Shown: positions 11,006 to 52,670 of the stretch, piece after piece
Numbering within the stretch: the first letter of the stretch is position 1
Layout of the letters: the number at the start of each line of letters is the position of its first letter
Assembly (NCBI RefSeq): GCF_016026235.1
Contig: NZ_CP065613.1
Direction: 5' to 3' (one strand)
DNA length: 64,000 nt
Source: Escherichia coli
GTDB lineage: Bacteria; Pseudomonadota; Gammaproteobacteria; Enterobacterales; Enterobacteriaceae
The notes under the pieces: generated by a model
Databases searched by the model: none
What the model was told of the DNA's origin: nothing
The model's input: the letters and a program-made list of their open reading frames with translations, nothing else
Position numbers and translations under genes: made by a program

Positions 11006-11791
11006 TTAAATCTCTACGTCGCGGTTGCAATCTTTCGAGTAAATATAGCTGAACGCTTCACCACGCCCTACGCCATAACCAGCCTGTAAAGAATAAGCGC
11101 CCATAAAGATGTAATCGCCTTTTTTCACCGGGATCCAGTTATTGTCGAGGTTATAAACCCCCTGACCGGAAAGAATATAGGCACCGTGTTCCTGAACGTG
11201 TGTTTCGATATAACCATGGCTGGCACTTGGTGCAAAAGAGAGGATATGCATGTTCATATCAAAACCTAACTCTTTGGGCAGAAAATCCAGCAGGATCACA
11301 TCATCCATACCTTCATAGTGAATGCGTTCCAGTTCGCTGGCATTGCCAGAAACCAGCCACGGTGCATGGCCTTCTACCGGAACATAGCGGCGCTTATATA
11401 AAAAGATTTGGCTGTCTTCGGACTGGGCGTTAACAAACGTCATTAAGGAGCCTGGCGGGCAATAAAGATAGCCACCTTCGCTTAAGGCAAATGTTTTGCC
11501 TTCGGCTTTGGCAGTGATATTTCCAGAGATCACATACAGGAACGTTTCAATGCCTTCGCCACCGAAGCCCTGTTGGTTGCCACCGTTTTGATGCAGTGTG
11601 ACCAGATAATCAACAAAAGAGGCACCCAGCTTTGGCGTGGAGAGGATTGTCGCGTCACAATTTTCAAAGCCCGGAATAATATTTTTTACCAGACCGTCTG
11701 GTGTTAACAGTGCGAAATTACCGTGTTTCACAATCGCACGGTTAGCCAGTAAATCATCGCGGTAACCGGTGACGTTATTTAAATATCCCAT
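11006..11791 (-). CDS. allE: (S)-ureidoglycine aminohydrolase (cupin)
   Basis: 261-aa ORF, last gene of the allD-allC-allE operon by synteny (K-12 ylbA). Confidence 0.88.
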   Translation of the reverse strand: MGYLNNVTGYRDDLLANRAIVKHGNFALLTPDGLVKNIIPGFENCDATILSTPKLGASFVDYLVTLHQNGGNQQGFGGEGIETFLYVISGNITAKAEGKTFALSEGGYLYCPPGSLMTFVNAQSEDSQIFLYKRRYVPVEGHAPWLVSGNASELERIHYEGMDDVILLDFLPKELGFDMNMHILSFAPSASHGYIETHVQEHGAYILSGQGVYNLDNNWIPVKKGDYIFMGAYSLQAGYGVGRGEAFSYIYSKDCNRDVEI

Positions 11792-11801
11792 TTATGACTC
11801 C

Positions 11802-13037
11802 TTATTTCTGCCAGGCAAGTTGATAAAGCATGAGTGCCAACGTTTTGACCCCTTCGGCAAGGTCGGTAATATTGGTGCGTTCCGCCGGGTTATGGCTGAT
11901 CCCGTTGATGCTGGGGATAAAAATCATGCAGGTTGGTACGCGAGGCGCGAAAATTTGCGCGTCGTGCCCGGCACCACTGTGCATCACCCGGTAATTCAGT
12001 TTTTCACTTTCACACAATTCTGTCAGGGTGGCGACCAGGTCCTTATTCATCGGCACGGGTTCTTCGTCCATCCATAAATCGATATCAATACCAATGTCCA
12101 TTTCATCGCAAATCGCCCGCATGTCGTTTTCTAACTGTTGGGTGAAATCATGCAGCACGGCGGCGTCGGTATGACGACAATCAATGGTGAACGTGGTTTT
12201 ACCCGGCACCACATTCACCGTATTCGGGCGCGGCTCTACTTTCCCAAAGGTCAGAACCAGCGGATCGCCCATCTTTTTCGCTTTTTCGATCGATTGATGG
12301 CAAATGCGACTGAAAGCGTAAACCGTATCACGACGATAACCCATCGGCGTGGTGCCTGCATGGTTTGATTCGCCGTTCAGCGTCACCGTATAGCGACGTT
12401 GCCCGACAATTGCATTCACCACGCCAATTGATTGCCCATTACTTTCCAGCACACAGCCCTGTTCGATATGCAGTTCGACAAAGGCTTTAATATCCTGACG
12501 CGGAGTTAGCGGGGCGTCCGGCAGAGTAAATCCGCAAGCCTTCATCGCATCGACAAAACTATTTCCTTTGGCATCACAGATATTCCGCACGTCGTCAGGA
12601 TTCGCCAGTCCAAAGATATTTTTACTGCCCCAGAAAACATACGGGAAGCGGCTGCCTTCTTCTTCCGCCATCGCCACCACTTCAACCGTACGCAGCGGTG
12701 CGCCGTATTGAGTTTTCAGCCAGTCAATTGCCAGCCACGCCGCCAGCGCGCCGAATTGCCCGTCGAGGTTACCGCCGTTAACCACGGTATCGATATGCGA
12801 ACCGCTCAGAACCACTTCCTGTGGATATTCGGTGCCATTCAGGCGACCGTATAAATTCCCCACTTCATCGAAACGTGTTTCCAGCCCGCTTGCTGCCATT
12901 CTTTTTTTAAATTGCTGCTGGGTTTCCAGCCATTCCGGCGAATAAAGTAAACGGGTCATCCCACCCGTTGGGTCAGCGCCAAATGAGGAAAGCCAGGGCA
13001 GCGCTTCTTCTATGGCTTGACGAAAATGTGTAATCAT
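11802..13037 (-). CDS. allC: Allantoate amidohydrolase (M20 peptidase family)
   Basis: 411 aa from MITHFRQAIEE (track ORF extends 6 codons upstream to 13055); synteny. Confidence 0.9.
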   Translation of the reverse strand: MITHFRQAIEEALPWLSSFGADPTGGMTRLLYSPEWLETQQQFKKRMAASGLETRFDEVGNLYGRLNGTEYPQEVVLSGSHIDTVVNGGNLDGQFGALAAWLAIDWLKTQYGAPLRTVEVVAMAEEEGSRFPYVFWGSKNIFGLANPDDVRNICDAKGNSFVDAMKACGFTLPDAPLTPRQDIKAFVELHIEQGCVLESNGQSIGVVNAIVGQRRYTVTLNGESNHAGTTPMGYRRDTVYAFSRICHQSIEKAKKMGDPLVLTFGKVEPRPNTVNVVPGKTTFTIDCRHTDAAVLHDFTQQLENDMRAICDEMDIGIDIDLWMDEEPVPMNKDLVATLTELCESEKLNYRVMHSGAGHDAQIFAPRVPTCMIFIPSINGISHNPAERTNITDLAEGVKTLALMLYQLAWQK

Positions 13038-13058: not shown

Positions 13059-14108
13059 TTATTGCGCAAAGGGATTTTTCGTTTCGTATGACGTGTTATA
13101 AAGCGCGTCGGAAATTAAATACTGGTAAATATCATCAACAATTTCGATGCCTTCGACGGCGGCTTTGCGTTGTTTAATATCCTGATCCTGTCCGGGATAA
13201 TAAACCTGATTAAAACCGGGCGCGGGGGTAATGGCATTTAATTCGCGCATGGTCTGGCTAAGATGTTGACGGAATAATTCGCTGGAGGAGAAAAAGTTCG
13301 GGTTAATAACTACATGTAATTGCCCCAAATTACGCCCGGCGTGTAAATCGTCATACATCGAACTAACCTGTCGCCCGAACGGTAAGCCGAGTAAGACGCC
13401 TGAGAGGACGTCAATCATCATCATCAGGCCATACCCTTTCGGCCCGGCTGCGGGGAGCAGAGCATGTACCGCGAACGGATCGGTTGTTGGTGCACCGTTT
13501 TTATCGACCGCCCAGGTATCCGGGATAGACATATTACGCGAGCGGGCGTCGAGCACTTTTCCCCATGCCTGTACGGTAGTCGCCATATCAAAGGTAAGGA
13601 TCTCGTCGCCTTCTCCCGGCGCGGCAAAGGCCAGTGGGTTAGTACCGTAGTAAATTTCCGCGCCGCCAAACGGCACCACCATTGGATCGGACTGGCACAT
13701 CGAAATGCCAATTAATCCGGCGCGGGCTGCCTGCTGCACAAAATAAGAGATTGCGCCGCTGTGACCCATCCGGCTGATACCGACCACCGCAACGCCATTT
13801 TGCTGGGCGGTTTCGATGGCATGTTCCATACCCATTTTCGCCGCGACCTGTCCGGCGGCATTGTCGGCATGTAAAATTGCCGAGCACGGCCCGGTTTCCT
13901 CAAGACGAAACTCCGGTTCGCGGTTGGTGCCGCCTTTTGAAATGCGTTCCGCGTAGTATTCCACGCGCACCGCGCCATGAGAGTGGATCCCTCTGGCATC
14001 GGCGTAAACCAATACTTCAGCCACGGTTGCAGCGTGCTCACGTTTTAACCCAGCCTGGCAGAGTTTATTCTCAATTAGCTGGTGGAGTGTTTCCCGACTG
14101 ATTTTCAT
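13059..14108 (-). CDS. allD: Ureidoglycolate dehydrogenase
   Basis: 349-aa ORF, Ldh_2 (malate/L-lactate dehydrogenase-like) family; synteny. Confidence 0.9.
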   Translation of the reverse strand: MKISRETLHQLIENKLCQAGLKREHAATVAEVLVYADARGIHSHGAVRVEYYAERISKGGTNREPEFRLEETGPCSAILHADNAAGQVAAKMGMEHAIETAQQNGVAVVGISRMGHSGAISYFVQQAARAGLIGISMCQSDPMVVPFGGAEIYYGTNPLAFAAPGEGDEILTFDMATTVQAWGKVLDARSRNMSIPDTWAVDKNGAPTTDPFAVHALLPAAGPKGYGLMMMIDVLSGVLLGLPFGRQVSSMYDDLHAGRNLGQLHVVINPNFFSSSELFRQHLSQTMRELNAITPAPGFNQVYYPGQDQDIKQRKAAVEGIEIVDDIYQYLISDALYNTSYETKNPFAQ

Positions 14109-14424
14109 CTGTCTTCCTTTTTAACGACGGTGTGAAGCATGACTGCAATTAACATACAGGGAAAATATCTGGATTATGTGATCCAGACAGGCAAAAAAAT
14201 ATAGTTAGAATTTATTTGATAATCTTCGCGCTTTTAACCTGGTTTTTAAAACAACCATGCTTATTAAAAAATAACGCGTAATAGTCTGGCGGTTATTTGA
14301 ATTCTTTTGTTAATAATCCCTGTGTGATATTCATCACCTTATTTACCCGTTGTCATCGATACCGTAATCGCCACATTAACACTGCTCGTGCAATTGCCAT
14401 GGGTGCAATTTTTAAGGAGTTGTT

Positions 14425-16092
14425 ATGATCCACGCCTTTATTAAAAAAGGGTGTTTTCAGGATTCGGTCAGTTTAATGATTATTTCACGAAAACTCAGCG
14501 AATCAGAAAATGTTGATGATGTTTCCGTAATGATGGGTACGCCCGCCAATAAAGCGTTATTAGATACCACAGGTTTCTGGCATGACGATTTTAATAACGC
14601 CACGCCGAACGATATTTGCGTGGCAATTCGTAGCGAAGCGGCGGATGTGGGGATCGCGCAGGCGATTATGCAGCAGCTTGAAGAGGCGCTAAAACAACTG
14701 GCGCAGGGGTCAGGCAGCAGCCAGTCCTTGACGCAGGTGCGTCGCTGGGACAGTGTCTGTCAGAAATTACCCGATGCCAATCTGGCGCTGATTTCAGTGG
14801 CTGGCGAGTATGCGGCGGAGCTGGCGAATCAGGCGCTGGATCGCAACCTCAACGTGATGATGTTCTCCGATAACGTCACGCTGAAAGATGAAATCCAACT
14901 TAAAACCCGCGCGCGAGAAAAAGGCTTGCTGGTGATGGGGCCGGACTGCGGTACGTCGATGATTGCCGGCACGCCGCTGGCTTTTGCTAACGTGATGCCG
15001 GAAGGCAATATTGGCGTCATTGGCGCTTCCGGTACCGGGATTCAGGAGCTGTGCTCGCAGATTGCGCTGGCAGGGGAGGGAATTACTCACGCGATTGGCC
15101 TTGGCGGCCGCGACCTCAGCCGTGAAGTGGGCGGCATCAGTGCGCTAACAGCGCTGGAAATGCTCAGTGCAGACGAGAAAAGCGAAGTGCTGGCATTTGT
15201 TTCAAAACCACCTGCCGATGCTGTGCGTCTGAAAATTGTTAATGCCATGAAAGCAACCGGCAAACCGACGGTGGCGCTGTTTTTAGGTTATACCCCGGCG
15301 GTGGCCCGTGACGAGAATGTCTGGTTTGCCTCCTCGCTGGATGAGGCCGCACGCCTGGCTTGCCTGCTTTCACGCGTTACGGCGCGACGTAACGCGATAA
15401 CGCCAGCCAGCAGCGGATTTATTTGCGGTTTGTATACCGGCGGTACGCTGGCTGCCGAAGCGGCGGGATTACTTGCCGGACACCTTGGCGTGGAAGCCGA
15501 TGATGCCCATCATCACGGCATGATGCTCGACGCCGATGGTCACCAGATTATTGACCTCGGCGATGATTTCTACACAGTCGGGCGTCCCCATCCGATGATC
15601 GACCCAACCTTACGCAACCAGTTAATTGCCGATCTCGGCGCTAAACCGCAAGTGCGTGTGCTGCTGCTTGATGTCGTGATTGGCTTCGGTGCGACTGCCG
15701 ATCCTGCCGCCTCGCTGGTAAGCGCCTGGCAAAAAGCCTGTGCTGCGCGTTCAGACAATCAACCACTGTATGCCATTGCCACGGTGACAGGCACTGAACG
15801 TGACCCGCAATGCCGCTCGCAGCAAATCGCCACGCTGGAAGATGCGGGGATTGCGGTCGTGAGTTCGCTACCGGAAGCCACCTTGCTGGCGGCAGCGTTA
15901 ATTCATCCGCTCTCACCTGCCGCACAGCAACACACACCGTCATTACTGGAAAACGTCGCCGTGATTAACATCGGATTACGCAGTTTTGCGCTGGAGCTAC
16001 AAAGCGCCAGCAAACCGGTTGTGCATTACCAATGGTCGCCAGTCGCCGGCGGCAATAAAAAACTGGCTCGTTTATTAGAACGTTTGCAATAA
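14425..16092 (+). CDS. fdrA: FdrA (acyl-CoA synthetase/succinyl-CoA ligase alpha-like); proposed oxamate carbamoyltransferase component
   Basis: 555-aa ORF with CoA-binding Rossmann-like region; synteny after allD. Confidence 0.85.
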   Translation: MIHAFIKKGCFQDSVSLMIISRKLSESENVDDVSVMMGTPANKALLDTTGFWHDDFNNATPNDICVAIRSEAADVGIAQAIMQQLEEALKQLAQGSGSSQSLTQVRRWDSVCQKLPDANLALISVAGEYAAELANQALDRNLNVMMFSDNVTLKDEIQLKTRAREKGLLVMGPDCGTSMIAGTPLAFANVMPEGNIGVIGASGTGIQELCSQIALAGEGITHAIGLGGRDLSREVGGISALTALEMLSADEKSEVLAFVSKPPADAVRLKIVNAMKATGKPTVALFLGYTPAVARDENVWFASSLDEAARLACLLSRVTARRNAITPASSGFICGLYTGGTLAAEAAGLLAGHLGVEADDAHHHGMMLDADGHQIIDLGDDFYTVGRPHPMIDPTLRNQLIADLGAKPQVRVLLLDVVIGFGATADPAASLVSAWQKACAARSDNQPLYAIATVTGTERDPQCRSQQIATLEDAGIAVVSSLPEATLLAAALIHPLSPAAQQHTPSLLENVAVINIGLRSFALELQSASKPVVHYQWSPVAGGNKKLARLLERLQ

Positions 16093-16101
16093 GGGGTTCC
16101 C

Positions 16102-17361
16102 ATGTTTACATCAGTGGCGCAAGCCAATGCTGCGGTTATCGAACAAATTCGTCGCGCTCGTCCACACTGGCTGGATGTGCAACTGGCTTCTTCACTTATC
16201 AGCGAACTACACCCGGGCAAAACACTGCTTCACGCCGGGCCGCCAATGCGCTGGCAGGAGATGACCGGACCCATGAAAGGGGCGTGCGTGGGCGCATGTC
16301 TGTTCGAAGGTTGGGCGAAAGATGAAGCGCAGGCGCTGGCAATACTGGAGCAGGGGGAAGTGAACTTCATTCCTTGTCACCATGTGAATGCCGTCGGGCC
16401 AATGGGCGGTATTACTTCTGCCAGTATGCCGATGCTGGTGGTCGAGAACGTGACCGACGGCAACCGGGCGTACTGCAACCTCAACGAAGGTATCGGCAAA
16501 GTGATGCGTTTTGGCGCTTACGGCGAAGATGTCCTGACTCGCCATCGCTGGATGCGCGATGTGTTAATGCCAGTATTAAGCGCGGCGCTGGGGCGCATGG
16601 AGCACGGTATCGATCTCACGGCGATGATGGCGCAGGGCATTACCATGGGCGATGAGTTCCATCAACGCAATATTGCTTCCTCAGCACTGTTAATGCGTGC
16701 GCTGGCCCCACAAATTGCTCGCCTCGATCATGATAAACAGCACATCGCGGAAGTGATGGATTTCCTCAGCGTGACCGATCAGTTCTTCCTCAACCTTGCG
16801 ATGGCTTACTGCAAGGCGGCGATGGATGCTGGCGCGATGATCCGCGCAGGCAGCATCGTCACGGCTATGACCCGCAACGGCAATATGTTCGGGATTCGGG
16901 TAAGCGGGCTGGGCGATCGCTGGTTTACTGCGCCTGTAAACACTCCGCAAGGTCTGTTTTTCACCGGCTTCTCGCAGGAGCAGGCGAACCCGGATATGGG
17001 CGATAGCGCGATTACCGAAACCTTTGGTATCGGAGGTGCGGCAATGATCGCAGCGCCTGGCGTAACGCGCTTTGTCGGTGCGGGTGGCATGGAAGCCGCC
17101 AGAACGGTATCTGAAGAGATGGCGGAAATTTACCTTGAACGCAATATGCAGTTGCAGATCCCTGGCTGGGATTTCCAGGGCGCGTGCCTGGGGCTGGACA
17201 TTCGTCGCGTGGTAGAAACCGGCATTACGCCACTCATCAATACCGGTATCGCCCATAAAGAGGCGGGGATCGGGCAGATTGGCGCAGGCACCGTGCGGGC
17301 ACCGCTGGCGTGTTTTGAACAGGCCCTGGAAGCACTGGCTGAAAGTATGGGGATTGGTTGA
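16102..17361 (+). CDS. ylbE: DUF1116 protein YlbE, intact
   Basis: Uninterrupted 419-aa ORF starting 10 nt after the fdrA stop; synteny. Confidence 0.85.
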
Positions 17362-17371
17362 GGAACGCACA

Positions 17372-18187
17372 ATGACGATCATCCATCCTCTGCTTGCCAG
17401 TAGTAGCGCACCGAATTATCGCCAGTTCTGGCGGTTAGCGGGAGTGTGGCGGCGGGCGATTAACCTGATGACGGAAAGCGGCGAACTGTTAACGCTGCAT
17501 CGTCAGGGTAGTGGTTTCGGCCCCGGAGGATGGGTGCTTCGCCGCGCGCAATTCGATGCGTTATGCGGTGGATTATGCGGCAATGAACGACCACAGGTTG
17601 TGGCTCAAGGGATTCGCCTCGGACGTTTCACGGTTAAACAGCCACAGCGTTATTGTTTGCTGCGTATTACGCCGCCTGCGCATCCTCAACCGCTTGCAGC
17701 TGCATGGATGCAACGCGCGGAGGAAACCGGGCTTTTCGGGCCACTGGCGTTGGCGGCAAGCGATCCGCTGCCCGCTGAATTACGCCAGTTTCGTCACTGT
17801 TTTCAGGCCGCGCTCAATGGCGTTAAGACCGACTGGCGGCACTGGCTGGGTAAAGGCCCCGGATTAACGCCAAGTCATGATGACACGCTGAGCGGAATGC
17901 TGCTGGCGGCCTGGTATTATGGTGCTTTAGATGCGCACTCCGGTCGTCCGTTTTTTGCCTGTTCCGACAATCTTCAACTCGTTACCACAGCGGTGAGCGT
18001 CAGTTATTTACGTTATGCCGCGCAAGGATATTTCGCCTCGCCACTCCTGCATTTTGCTCATGCTCTGAGTTGCCCGAAACGTACCGCTGTTGCGATTGAT
18101 TCGCTGCTGGCGCTGGGGCATACGTCAGGGGCAGATACGCTGCTGGGGTTCTGGCTTGGTCAACAATTATTACAAGGAAAACCATGA
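17372..18187 (+). CDS. ylbF: DUF2877 protein YlbF
   Basis: 271 aa from [10 protein letters not shown] (track ORF 17279 is an upstream extension overlapping ylbE); synteny. Confidence 0.8.
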
Positions 18188-19077
18188 AAACACTGGTTGT
18201 AGCTCTTGGGGGCAACGCCTTACTCCAGCGCGGTGAGGCGCTGACGGCGGAAAATCAATATCGCAATATCGCCAGTGCTGTCCCCGCGCTGGCGCGCCTG
18301 GCCCGTTCTTATCGGCTGGCGATTGTTCACGGCAACGGGCCGCAGGTGGGGCTGCTGGCATTACAGAATCTGGCGTGGAAAGAGGTAGAACCGTATCCGC
18401 TGGATGTGCTGGTAGCGGAAAGTCAGGGGATGATTGGCTATATGCTGGCGCAGAGTTTGAGCGCACAGCCGCAGATGCCGCCTGTCACGACGGTGCTGAC
18501 GCGCATTGAAGTTTCGCCTGATGATCCGGCGTTTTTGCAGCCAGAGAAGTTTATCGGTCCGGTTTATCAGCCAGAAGAACAAGAGACACTAGAAGCGGCT
18601 TACGGCTGGCAGATGAAACGTGATGGTAAATATTTACGCCGGGTGGTGGCGTCTCCGCAACCGCGTAAAATTCTCGACAGCGAAGCCATCGAGTTGTTGC
18701 TCAAAGAGGGGCATGTGGTGTTTTGCAGTGGCGGCGGCGGTGTGCCTGTGACGGATGACGGAGCAGGGAGTGAAGCAGTGATTGATAAAGATCTCGCCGC
18801 TGCGTTGCTCGCCGAGCAGATTAATGCCGATGGACTGGTGATCCTCACCGATGCTGATGCGGTATATGAAAACTGGGGAACGCCGCAGCAACGTGCCATT
18901 CGCCATGCCACACCGGATGAGTTAGCGCCATTTGCCAAAGCCGATGGTTCGATGGGGCCGAAGGTAACGGCGGTGAGTGGTTATGTCAGAAGCCGTGGTA
19001 AACCCGCGTGGATTGGGGCGTTATCGCGAATTGAAGAGACGCTGGCGGGCGAAGCGGGGACCTGTATTTCGCTGTAG
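18184..19077 (+). CDS. ybcF: Carbamate kinase-like protein (arcC paralogue)
   Basis: 297-aa ORF, amino-acid kinase fold; start overlaps the ylbF stop by 4 nt (ATGA). Confidence 0.88.
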
Positions 19078-52605: not shown

Positions 52606-52670
52606 AACATTGTTAAATGTAAGTTAAAACACCATTGTCAGGGATATTCTTCTGTAAGGCAATTCCCGAC

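Follow-up and report, generated by a model that had tools for sequence, protein, structure and literature searches.

A conserved CRP site and a candidate mirror element in the known divergent control region between allD and fdrA (allF) of Escherichia coli

INTRODUCTION

In malEp-malKp and melAB, a short AT-rich divergent spacer carries back-to-back catabolic promoters that are driven jointly by CRP and a specific activator, which is MalT in the first case and MelR in the second. The spacer between allD and allF (fdrA) of Escherichia coli differs from these in that its specific activator is of the LysR type, in that it has a third, anaerobic input, and in that its dependence on CRP is here a prediction. 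A link between cAMP-CRP and the allantoin regulon exists in Klebsiella pneumoniae, in which CRP control of allS has been described (Xue et al. 2016, Gene 593:28, as cited in PMC11495319); as presented by the citing paper, both the promoter (allS rather than allD or allF) and the species differ from the case analyzed here.

The K-12 orthologue of this spacer has been studied with reporter fusions, EMSA, and RT-PCR. The fdrA-ylbE-ylbF-ybcF genes form a single transcript by RT-PCR, and a low-GC stretch of roughly 400 bp before fdrA was earlier proposed as the promoter region (PMC9843812). The allFGH genes encode oxamic transcarbamylase and allK encodes a catabolic carbamate kinase (PMC11326118, PMC9843812). 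A plasmid-borne allF'-'lacZ fusion gave 19 MU under aerobic conditions, 105 MU under anaerobic conditions with ammonium, and 4007 MU under anaerobic conditions with allantoin, with an induction by anaerobiosis plus allantoin of about 38-fold (Kim & Kim 2025; PMC12535856). The same study found 115 MU in a delta-allS mutant and 102 MU in a delta-arcA mutant, compared with 4155 MU in the wild type; both mutants were successfully complemented (plasmid-borne arcA restored 3786 MU), and deletion of allR left the fusion unaffected, with no direct effect of AllR. In EMSA, lysate of AllS-overproducing cells shifted the fragment from -203 to -144, and phosphorylated lysate of ArcA-overproducing cells shifted the fragment from -142 to -83 (PMC12535856). 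On the other side of the spacer, expression of allD'-'lacZ was AllS dependent and occurred only under anaerobic conditions (Rintoul 2002, as cited in PMC12535856). A literature search, in which Rintoul 2002 was represented by its citation, returned no mapped transcription start site for allD or allF.

RESULTS

Identity of the allD-allF spacer

The first-pass annotation of the 64-kb stretch of E. coli DNA analyzed here (the window) had placed an AT-rich gap of 316 bp between two divergent units, allD-allC-allE and fdrA-ylbE-ylbF-ybcF. The length is exact, since the minus-strand ORF ends at position 14108 and the plus-strand ORF starts at 14425, and the start codons of allD and allF both face the intervening spacer (14109-14424), which is a divergent-promoter arrangement. 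The gene order also holds, based on ORFs, NCBIfam matches, and the K-12 annotation, which was carried over (window position equals K-12 position minus 532255) and in which the gene order is identical to that of the window. On the minus strand, allD (ureidoglycolate dehydrogenase; 13059-14108; NCBIfam AllD equivalog, 715 bits) is the first gene of its operon and is followed by allC (about 11802-13037) and allE (11006-11791), each identified by an NCBIfam equivalog and the K-12 annotation. On the plus strand, allF (fdrA; 14425-16092; NCBIfam FdrA, 1039 bits) is preceded by a Shine-Dalgarno sequence, AAGGAG (14414-14419), 5 nt before the ATG, and is followed by allG (ylbE; 16102-17361), allH (ylbF; about 17372-18187), and the carbamate kinase gene allK (ybcF; 18184-19077). 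The AT-richness of the spacer was likewise borne out: its GC content is 0.358, compared with 0.514 for the whole window and about 0.57 for the flanking genes, and only 0.8% of 316-bp segments of the window are as AT-rich.

The spacer is the orthologue of K-12 NC_000913.3 546364-546679. It has the same length as the K-12 spacer and differs from it by 13 substitutions (95.9% identity), all of which are within 14225-14347 and 11 of which are within 14225-14290. Nine of the differences fall in the AllS-shifted fragment and three in the ArcA-shifted fragment (14285, 14290, and 14318), while no difference affects the CRP site, the motif at 14293-14316 (both described below), or the outermost 116 and 77 bp. 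Among 5426 complete E. coli genomes, the locus is matched in 5420 and the spacer is present at a coverage of at least 80% in 5307; it carries an annotated feature in none of them. The haplotype in the window is the rarer one, with at least 99% identity in only 616 of 5338 genomes.

Several observations concern the surroundings of the locus. The window opens just upstream of allR (78-893), and allS and allA fall outside it, so that the activator acting on the spacer, AllS, has its gene elsewhere. The closest genome is that of E. coli FDAARGOS_943, in which the spacer is 100% identical. Its allantoin cluster is decaying, with IS1 copies in allB and downstream of both gcl and glxK, an IS5-family element within fdrA, and an internal stop in allE; unlike this cluster, the window has intact ORFs for allE, allC, allD, fdrA, ylbE, and ybcF. 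Farther along the window, tRNA-Arg(TCT) (argU) is located at 32419-32495, and envY follows argU directly in FDAARGOS_943. The ArcA box of K-12 ybdJ, TTGTTAAATGTAAGTTAA, is at 52610, which is 38 kb from allF; in K-12 the distance is about 59.5 kb, with allF taken to lie at 545,902 in the K-12 coordinates of Park 2013. Based on the shorter allF-ybdJ distance and the position of envY next to argU in the closest genome, the DLP12 prophage of K-12 appears to be absent from the window.

Conservation across genera and within Escherichia

We searched genome contigs with FdrA and obtained 78 loci. A divergent allD/fdrA pair occurs in Escherichia, Citrobacter, an Enterobacteriaceae MAG, Serratia, Erwinia, Pantoea, Ewingella, and Providencia, and the same arrangement is present in 20 loci besides that of the window, in 8 genera, with spacers of 310 to 494 bp and GC contents of 0.22 to 0.37. 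We aligned 8 close sequences and 21 spacers in all. The 21 spacers share a collinear order of elements, which runs from allD through a TGTGATC site, one or more LysR-type dyads, a variable center, a T-rich element ending in TAAyAAT, a TGTGA-N6-TCAC site, and a TA-N3-T hexamer to allF. The T-rich element corresponds to window positions 14300-14318 and to the right half of the motif at 14293-14316. The two TGTGA elements are 143 to 152 bp apart in every genus.

Among 12 Escherichia sequences, the segments 14109-14192, 14196-14224, 14322-14344, and 14372-14424 are free of variable sites, and 23 of the 39 variable columns are within 14225-14290. For the window/K-12 pair, the clustering of substitutions has a scan-statistic P of 3.5e-5. 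This segment has several distinct haplotypes between invariant flanks, a pattern that could reflect either relaxed constraint or recombination between alleles.

The CRP site and the allF promoter

The first-pass annotation had predicted promoters and activator sites in the spacer. This prediction stands for AllS and ArcA, for which sites are published, but it did not foresee the CRP site TGTGATATTCATCACC (TGTGA-N6-TCAC; 14323-14338), here called site D, whose center at 14330.5 is at -94.5 from the allF ATG. Scored with a matrix built from 39 other footprinted CRP sites, and thus independent of site D, it reaches 18.5 bits, a high score that ranks first of about 64,000 positions in the 64 kb (the runner-up has 11.5). 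Its arms are invariant in the 21 spacers from 8 genera, while the 6 bp between them vary freely. The K-12 equivalent of site D is listed as a novel CRP site (546586, 'allD / fdrA') in Table 1 of a 2026 Footprint-seq preprint, in which purified CRP protects the site in vitro with an inferred Kd of about 9.8 nM and in which the 21-mer given, tgTGTGAtattcaTCACCtta, is identical to window positions 14321-14341 (PMC12871828). The preprint reports in vitro binding alone, without a promoter assignment, a function, or a second site; a class II register, as suggested by the alignment, and the deep conservation of the site would be our addition to it. Glycerol is a carbon source on which CRP is expected to be active. 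In the main regulatory paper on the region, in which the CRP site goes unmentioned, high allF'-'lacZ expression was always measured on glycerol (PMC12535856).

When site D is set at -41.5, 18 of the 21 spacers have a TA-N3-T hexamer (TACCGT, TACCTT, TAGCTT, TAGTTT, or TAATTT) precisely at -12 to -7, and in the remaining 3 it is displaced by one base. In the window, the predicted -10 hexamer is TACCGT (14360-14365, plus strand). The position of site D at -41.5 together with that of the hexamer therefore predicts an allF start near 14372, which would give a leader of 53 nt. A simple sigma-70 scan of the spacer found only two plus-strand matches (14149-14177 and 14184-14211), which is the number expected from shuffled sequences, and neither coincides with the predicted allD or allF promoter.

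Site A and the allD promoter

The TGTGATC site on the allD side, here called site A (14177-14192), has a perfect CRP left half plus spacer and a right half that is degenerate in Escherichia. The sequence ATGTGATCyAGA, to which TGTGATCCAGA (14177-14187) corresponds in the window, is present without exception in the 21 spacers, which come from 8 genera. It lies 68 to 81 bp from the allD ATG except in one Serratia, whose spacer has an insertion. Scored as a full CRP site, site A reaches only 1.4 bits in Escherichia and 10 to 14 bits in Providencia, an Erwinia MAG, and Serratia DD3 and Ag1. The position and conservation of TGTGATCCAGA suggest that site A mirrors site D on the allD side. The predicted -10 hexamer of allD is TATGTT (14151-14156, minus strand; TACATT in Serratia and Erwinia), a conserved TA-N3-T sequence that, relative to site A, misses the exact class II register by one base in every genus. 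From this we infer an allD start at about 14144 and a leader of about 36 nt.

Site A is overlapped by a perfect palindrome, TCTGGAT-N6-ATCCAGA (14168-14187), that is found only in the Escherichia lineage and is flagged as terminator-like on the minus strand. Since Citrobacter and the more distant genera lack its left arm, we rejected it as a regulator site and regard it as probably incidental. In Serratia sp. Ag1, an imperfect palindrome of roughly 127 bp (2032-2158 of that sequence) is inserted between the allD start and TGTGATC, which puts the TGTGATC element 200 bp from the allD ATG. The insert has 27-nt arms that are 85% complementary, and its core, GTGAATCCCCAGGAGCTTAC...GTAAGTGACTGGGGTGA, resembles an ERIC/IRU repeat.

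AllS and the center of the spacer

Published EMSA and PRODORIC positions were converted by setting the allF ATG at 14425, which places the PRODORIC centers at 14244 for AllS and at 14308, 14291, and 14262 for ArcA. The AllS-shifted fragment of K-12 (allFp-203/-144; PMC12535856) is equivalent to 14222-14281. It contains the dyad TTTTAA-N8-TTAAAA (14232-14251), which is the PRODORIC AllS site centered at -181. This fragment is the most polymorphic and least conserved part of the spacer: 9 of its 60 positions differ between the window and K-12, with the arms of the dyad intact. The neighboring block B1, AAATATAGTTAGAATTTATTTGATAATC (14197-14224), is invariant in Escherichia, Citrobacter, and UBA3516, contains the LysR-type dyads ATA-N9-TAT (14201-14215) and TTA-N12-TAA (14205-14222), and shares just one base with the published AllS EMSA fragment. 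Based on this conservation and these dyads, we consider block B1 a candidate AllS recognition site. Both LysR-type dyad candidates, ATA-N9-TAT in the invariant block and TTTTAA-N8-TTAAAA in the polymorphic stretch, are motifs that carry little information in AT-rich DNA. In distant genera, the best match to block B1 is a TTAGAA-N3-TTCTAA dyad at +58 from site A, and whether block B1 or the -181 dyad is its orthologue is ambiguous from the alignment. PRODORIC also gives a match for OxyR, another LysR-type protein, in block B1 at -224, and an oxyR mutant kept expression (PMC12535856).

The AllS paralogue AdnB (YdhB) recognizes a palindromic site, TsttwTCAAwAwwwTTGaaGGCA (bioRxiv 10.1101/2020.05.03.074617), whose TTCAA/TTGAA arms are similar to TTCAAATTTTCTTTGAA, an element that Erwinia, Pantoea, and Serratia spacers carry at +28 from site A. 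The spacing differs, being N5 in the AdnB site (TCAA-N5-TTGA) and N7 in the TTCAA-N7-TTGAA element that takes the equivalent position in the Erwinia and Serratia spacers. The Escherichia block at this position has TTAGAATTTATTTGATAA.

The ArcA fragment and the motif at 14293-14316

The fragment shifted by phosphorylated ArcA lysate in K-12 (allFp-142/-83; PMC12535856) is equivalent to 14283-14342 and holds both the motif ttatttgaattcttttgttaataa (14293-14316; -132 to -109 from the allF ATG) and the whole of site D. Of the ArcA sites predicted by PRODORIC, the one at -117 is covered by the motif and the one at -134 is next to it. It had been quoted in the first-pass annotation as an inverted repeat. 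The sequence is present, but only 6 of its 12 mirrored positions pair (TTATT/AATAA plus one), which is the chance level: 300 of 300 dinucleotide shuffles hold a 24-mer that is equal or better, and on this test we rejected a real dyad. A repeat search of the spacer did not list the motif, and the number of short inverted repeats in the spacer is 15, compared with 8.1 ± 4.0 in shuffled sequences, of which 8.7% reach 15, so that the excess is not significant. The motif is conserved, with 1 of 24 positions variable among 12 Escherichia sequences and the right half kept in other genera; its core is TTCTTTTGyTAATAAT, which in distant genera becomes TTTTTTCTAACAAT.

Two other candidates in the spacer were rejected. 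The direct repeats CATGnnTGCAATT near both start codons are treated as chance, since their AATT part is unconserved in Citrobacter. An ORF of 43 amino acids with a TTG start (14297-14428) overlaps conserved binding-site blocks, and we found no reason to give it gene status.

Within the motif and the base that follows it, TGTTAATAAT (14308-14317) agrees at 9 of 10 positions with the old ArcA consensus, which we take to be WGTTAATTAW. We also scored the spacer with an ArcA-box matrix made from 115 ChIP-derived boxes (Park 2013, Table S3), for which the training minimum is 9.2 bits. Nothing above 5 bits was found in 14283-14342, in which no box of two TGTTA-type direct repeats 11 bp apart therefore scores like the ChIP-defined ones. 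The best matches in the spacer, which rank 9 and 11 in the window, are at 14234-14251 (minus strand, 10.2 bits) and 14409-14426 (plus strand, 9.6 bits); they fall on the published 'AllS' dyad and the allF ribosome-binding region and not on the ArcA sites of the literature. ChIP-seq/chip during glucose fermentation defined 176 ArcA regions (Park 2013), none of which is assigned to allD, fdrA, or K-12 474-578 kb; this absence is a weak negative, since the growth condition was not allantoin.

These results bear on whether ArcA acts at the spacer itself. It may instead act only indirectly, for example via allS expression or physiology, in which case AllS or some other protein would bind the conserved element at 14300-14318 and the 'ArcA-P' shift would come from CRP or a different lysate protein. 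In addition to the low matrix scores in the shifted fragment and the lack of a ChIP peak at the locus, the EMSA probe includes the whole CRP site, which is bound at 10 nM, and both EMSAs were made with crude lysates and with EBNA as the negative control instead of a vector-only lysate (PMC12535856). Moreover, deletion of arcA abolishes all allantoin use, which is broader than the loss of allF alone (PMC12535856), and distant genera carry TTTCTAACAA both in the LysR-type dyad and beside site D, which suggests that a single protein binds both. On the other hand, delta-arcA causes a 40-fold loss of allF'-'lacZ expression that is fully complemented, and it was an in vitro phosphorylated lysate of ArcA-overproducing cells that gave the shift (PMC12535856). 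The agreement of TGTTAATAAT with the older consensus and the PRODORIC score of 0.96 for the site also favor direct binding, the ChIP experiments were done on glucose, where the allF promoter is silent and AllS is absent, and CRP requires cAMP, none of which is reported to have been added to the EMSA. On balance, we regard a purely indirect role for ArcA as rather less likely than not.

Other readings of the spacer

A different anaerobic switch would be provided if site A and site D were used by FNR rather than by CRP. Both operons are strictly anaerobic, the consensus sites of FNR and CRP are related, and site D fits TTGAT-N4-ATCAA with two mismatches. Both mismatches, however, affect outermost half-site positions, where site D has G and C for T and A; these bases are invariant in 21 of 21 spacers, and it is here that CRP sites are told from FNR sites. 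Furthermore, purified CRP binds at about 10 nM (PMC12871828), and a published scan contains no FNR site (PMC12535856). As the sole FNR match in the spacer is the CRP site, with CRP-type discriminator bases, we rejected an FNR site there and consider control by FNR to be unlikely.

It is less probable still that 14372-14424 is a cis-acting leader RNA (attenuator or riboswitch) controlling allF. The segment is invariant in Escherichia and has a terminator-like hairpin with a T-run at 14383-14405, but Rfam at a permissive E-value gave only two chance matches far below threshold, and the predicted fold of the allF leader is no more stable than those of shuffled sequences (z = +0.47). The block at 14385-14410, 5' of the Shine-Dalgarno sequence, is kept within the Escherichia-Citrobacter group; beyond this group the segment is not conserved, and the leaders there are 83 to 106 nt and unrelated.

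Transcription of allF from a sigma-54 promoter, for which an iPro54-PseKNC score of 0.91 has been quoted (PMC9843812, PMC12535856) and with which nitrogen regulation of the operon agrees, is highly improbable, as the spacer has no match to TGGCAC-N5-TTGCW at 2 or fewer mismatches, its sole 3-mismatch matches (14377-14393) lack the GG, and the number of matches in the window is that expected by chance. Elsewhere in the window, positions 27526-27541 (plus strand) are a perfect sigma-54 consensus, TGGCAC-N5-TTGCT, the only one without a mismatch among the matches listed; by position it falls inside a fimbrial usher gene (sfmD region) and may be due to chance.

DISCUSSION

Based on gene arrangement, base composition, conservation, and the published work on the K-12 orthologue, the spacer is very probably a bidirectional control region that the allDCE and allFGHK operons of the anaerobic allantoin pathway share. 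The first-pass annotation had arrived at the same interpretation, including its naming of AllS as the allD activator, which matches Rintoul 2002 as cited in PMC12535856, and it was right in this, as the interpretation is already in print for K-12. The spacer is thus the already-known allD-allF control region and an ordinary one; since its regulators AllS and ArcA have been published, there is nothing new in kind.

In the mechanism that we propose, the spacer would contain two sigma-70 promoters, placed back to back, that have poor -35 elements and depend on activators. For an allF start near 14372, cAMP-CRP would bind at about -41.5 (class II), and for an allD start near 14144, the TGTGATCCAGA element would hold the mirror position. 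AllS, which would be made once glyoxylate has released AllR and nitrogen is limiting, would bind the center of the spacer (14197-14252) and give the pathway signal to both sides. The anaerobic signal would come from ArcA, which would act either at 14283-14318 itself or by an indirect route.

A more specific version of this model goes further than the bidirectional control region itself, and we advance it tentatively, at rather less than even confidence. According to this version, both promoters would be of the class II CRP type, back to back at a fixed spacing of about 146 to 152 bp that is conserved in the Enterobacterales from Escherichia to Providencia and Erwinia, and cAMP-CRP would be an unrecognized, obligatory coactivator beside AllS. 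The true AllS site would then be 14197-14224 rather than the dyad at -181, and the binding of ArcA at -142/-83 would be at least partly a probe artifact due to the CRP site.

What the present analysis adds is a footprint of conservation across genera, a strong CRP site that is verified in vitro and appears to be in class II register for allF, and, on the allD side, a putative mirror element. Two weak points of the published model also emerge, namely the position of the AllS site and the directness of ArcA binding. These points refine a known system and do not define a new one. For the organism, the spacer is of consequence in that it decides whether E. coli, when in the anaerobic gut, draws one ATP and the last nitrogen out of allantoin.
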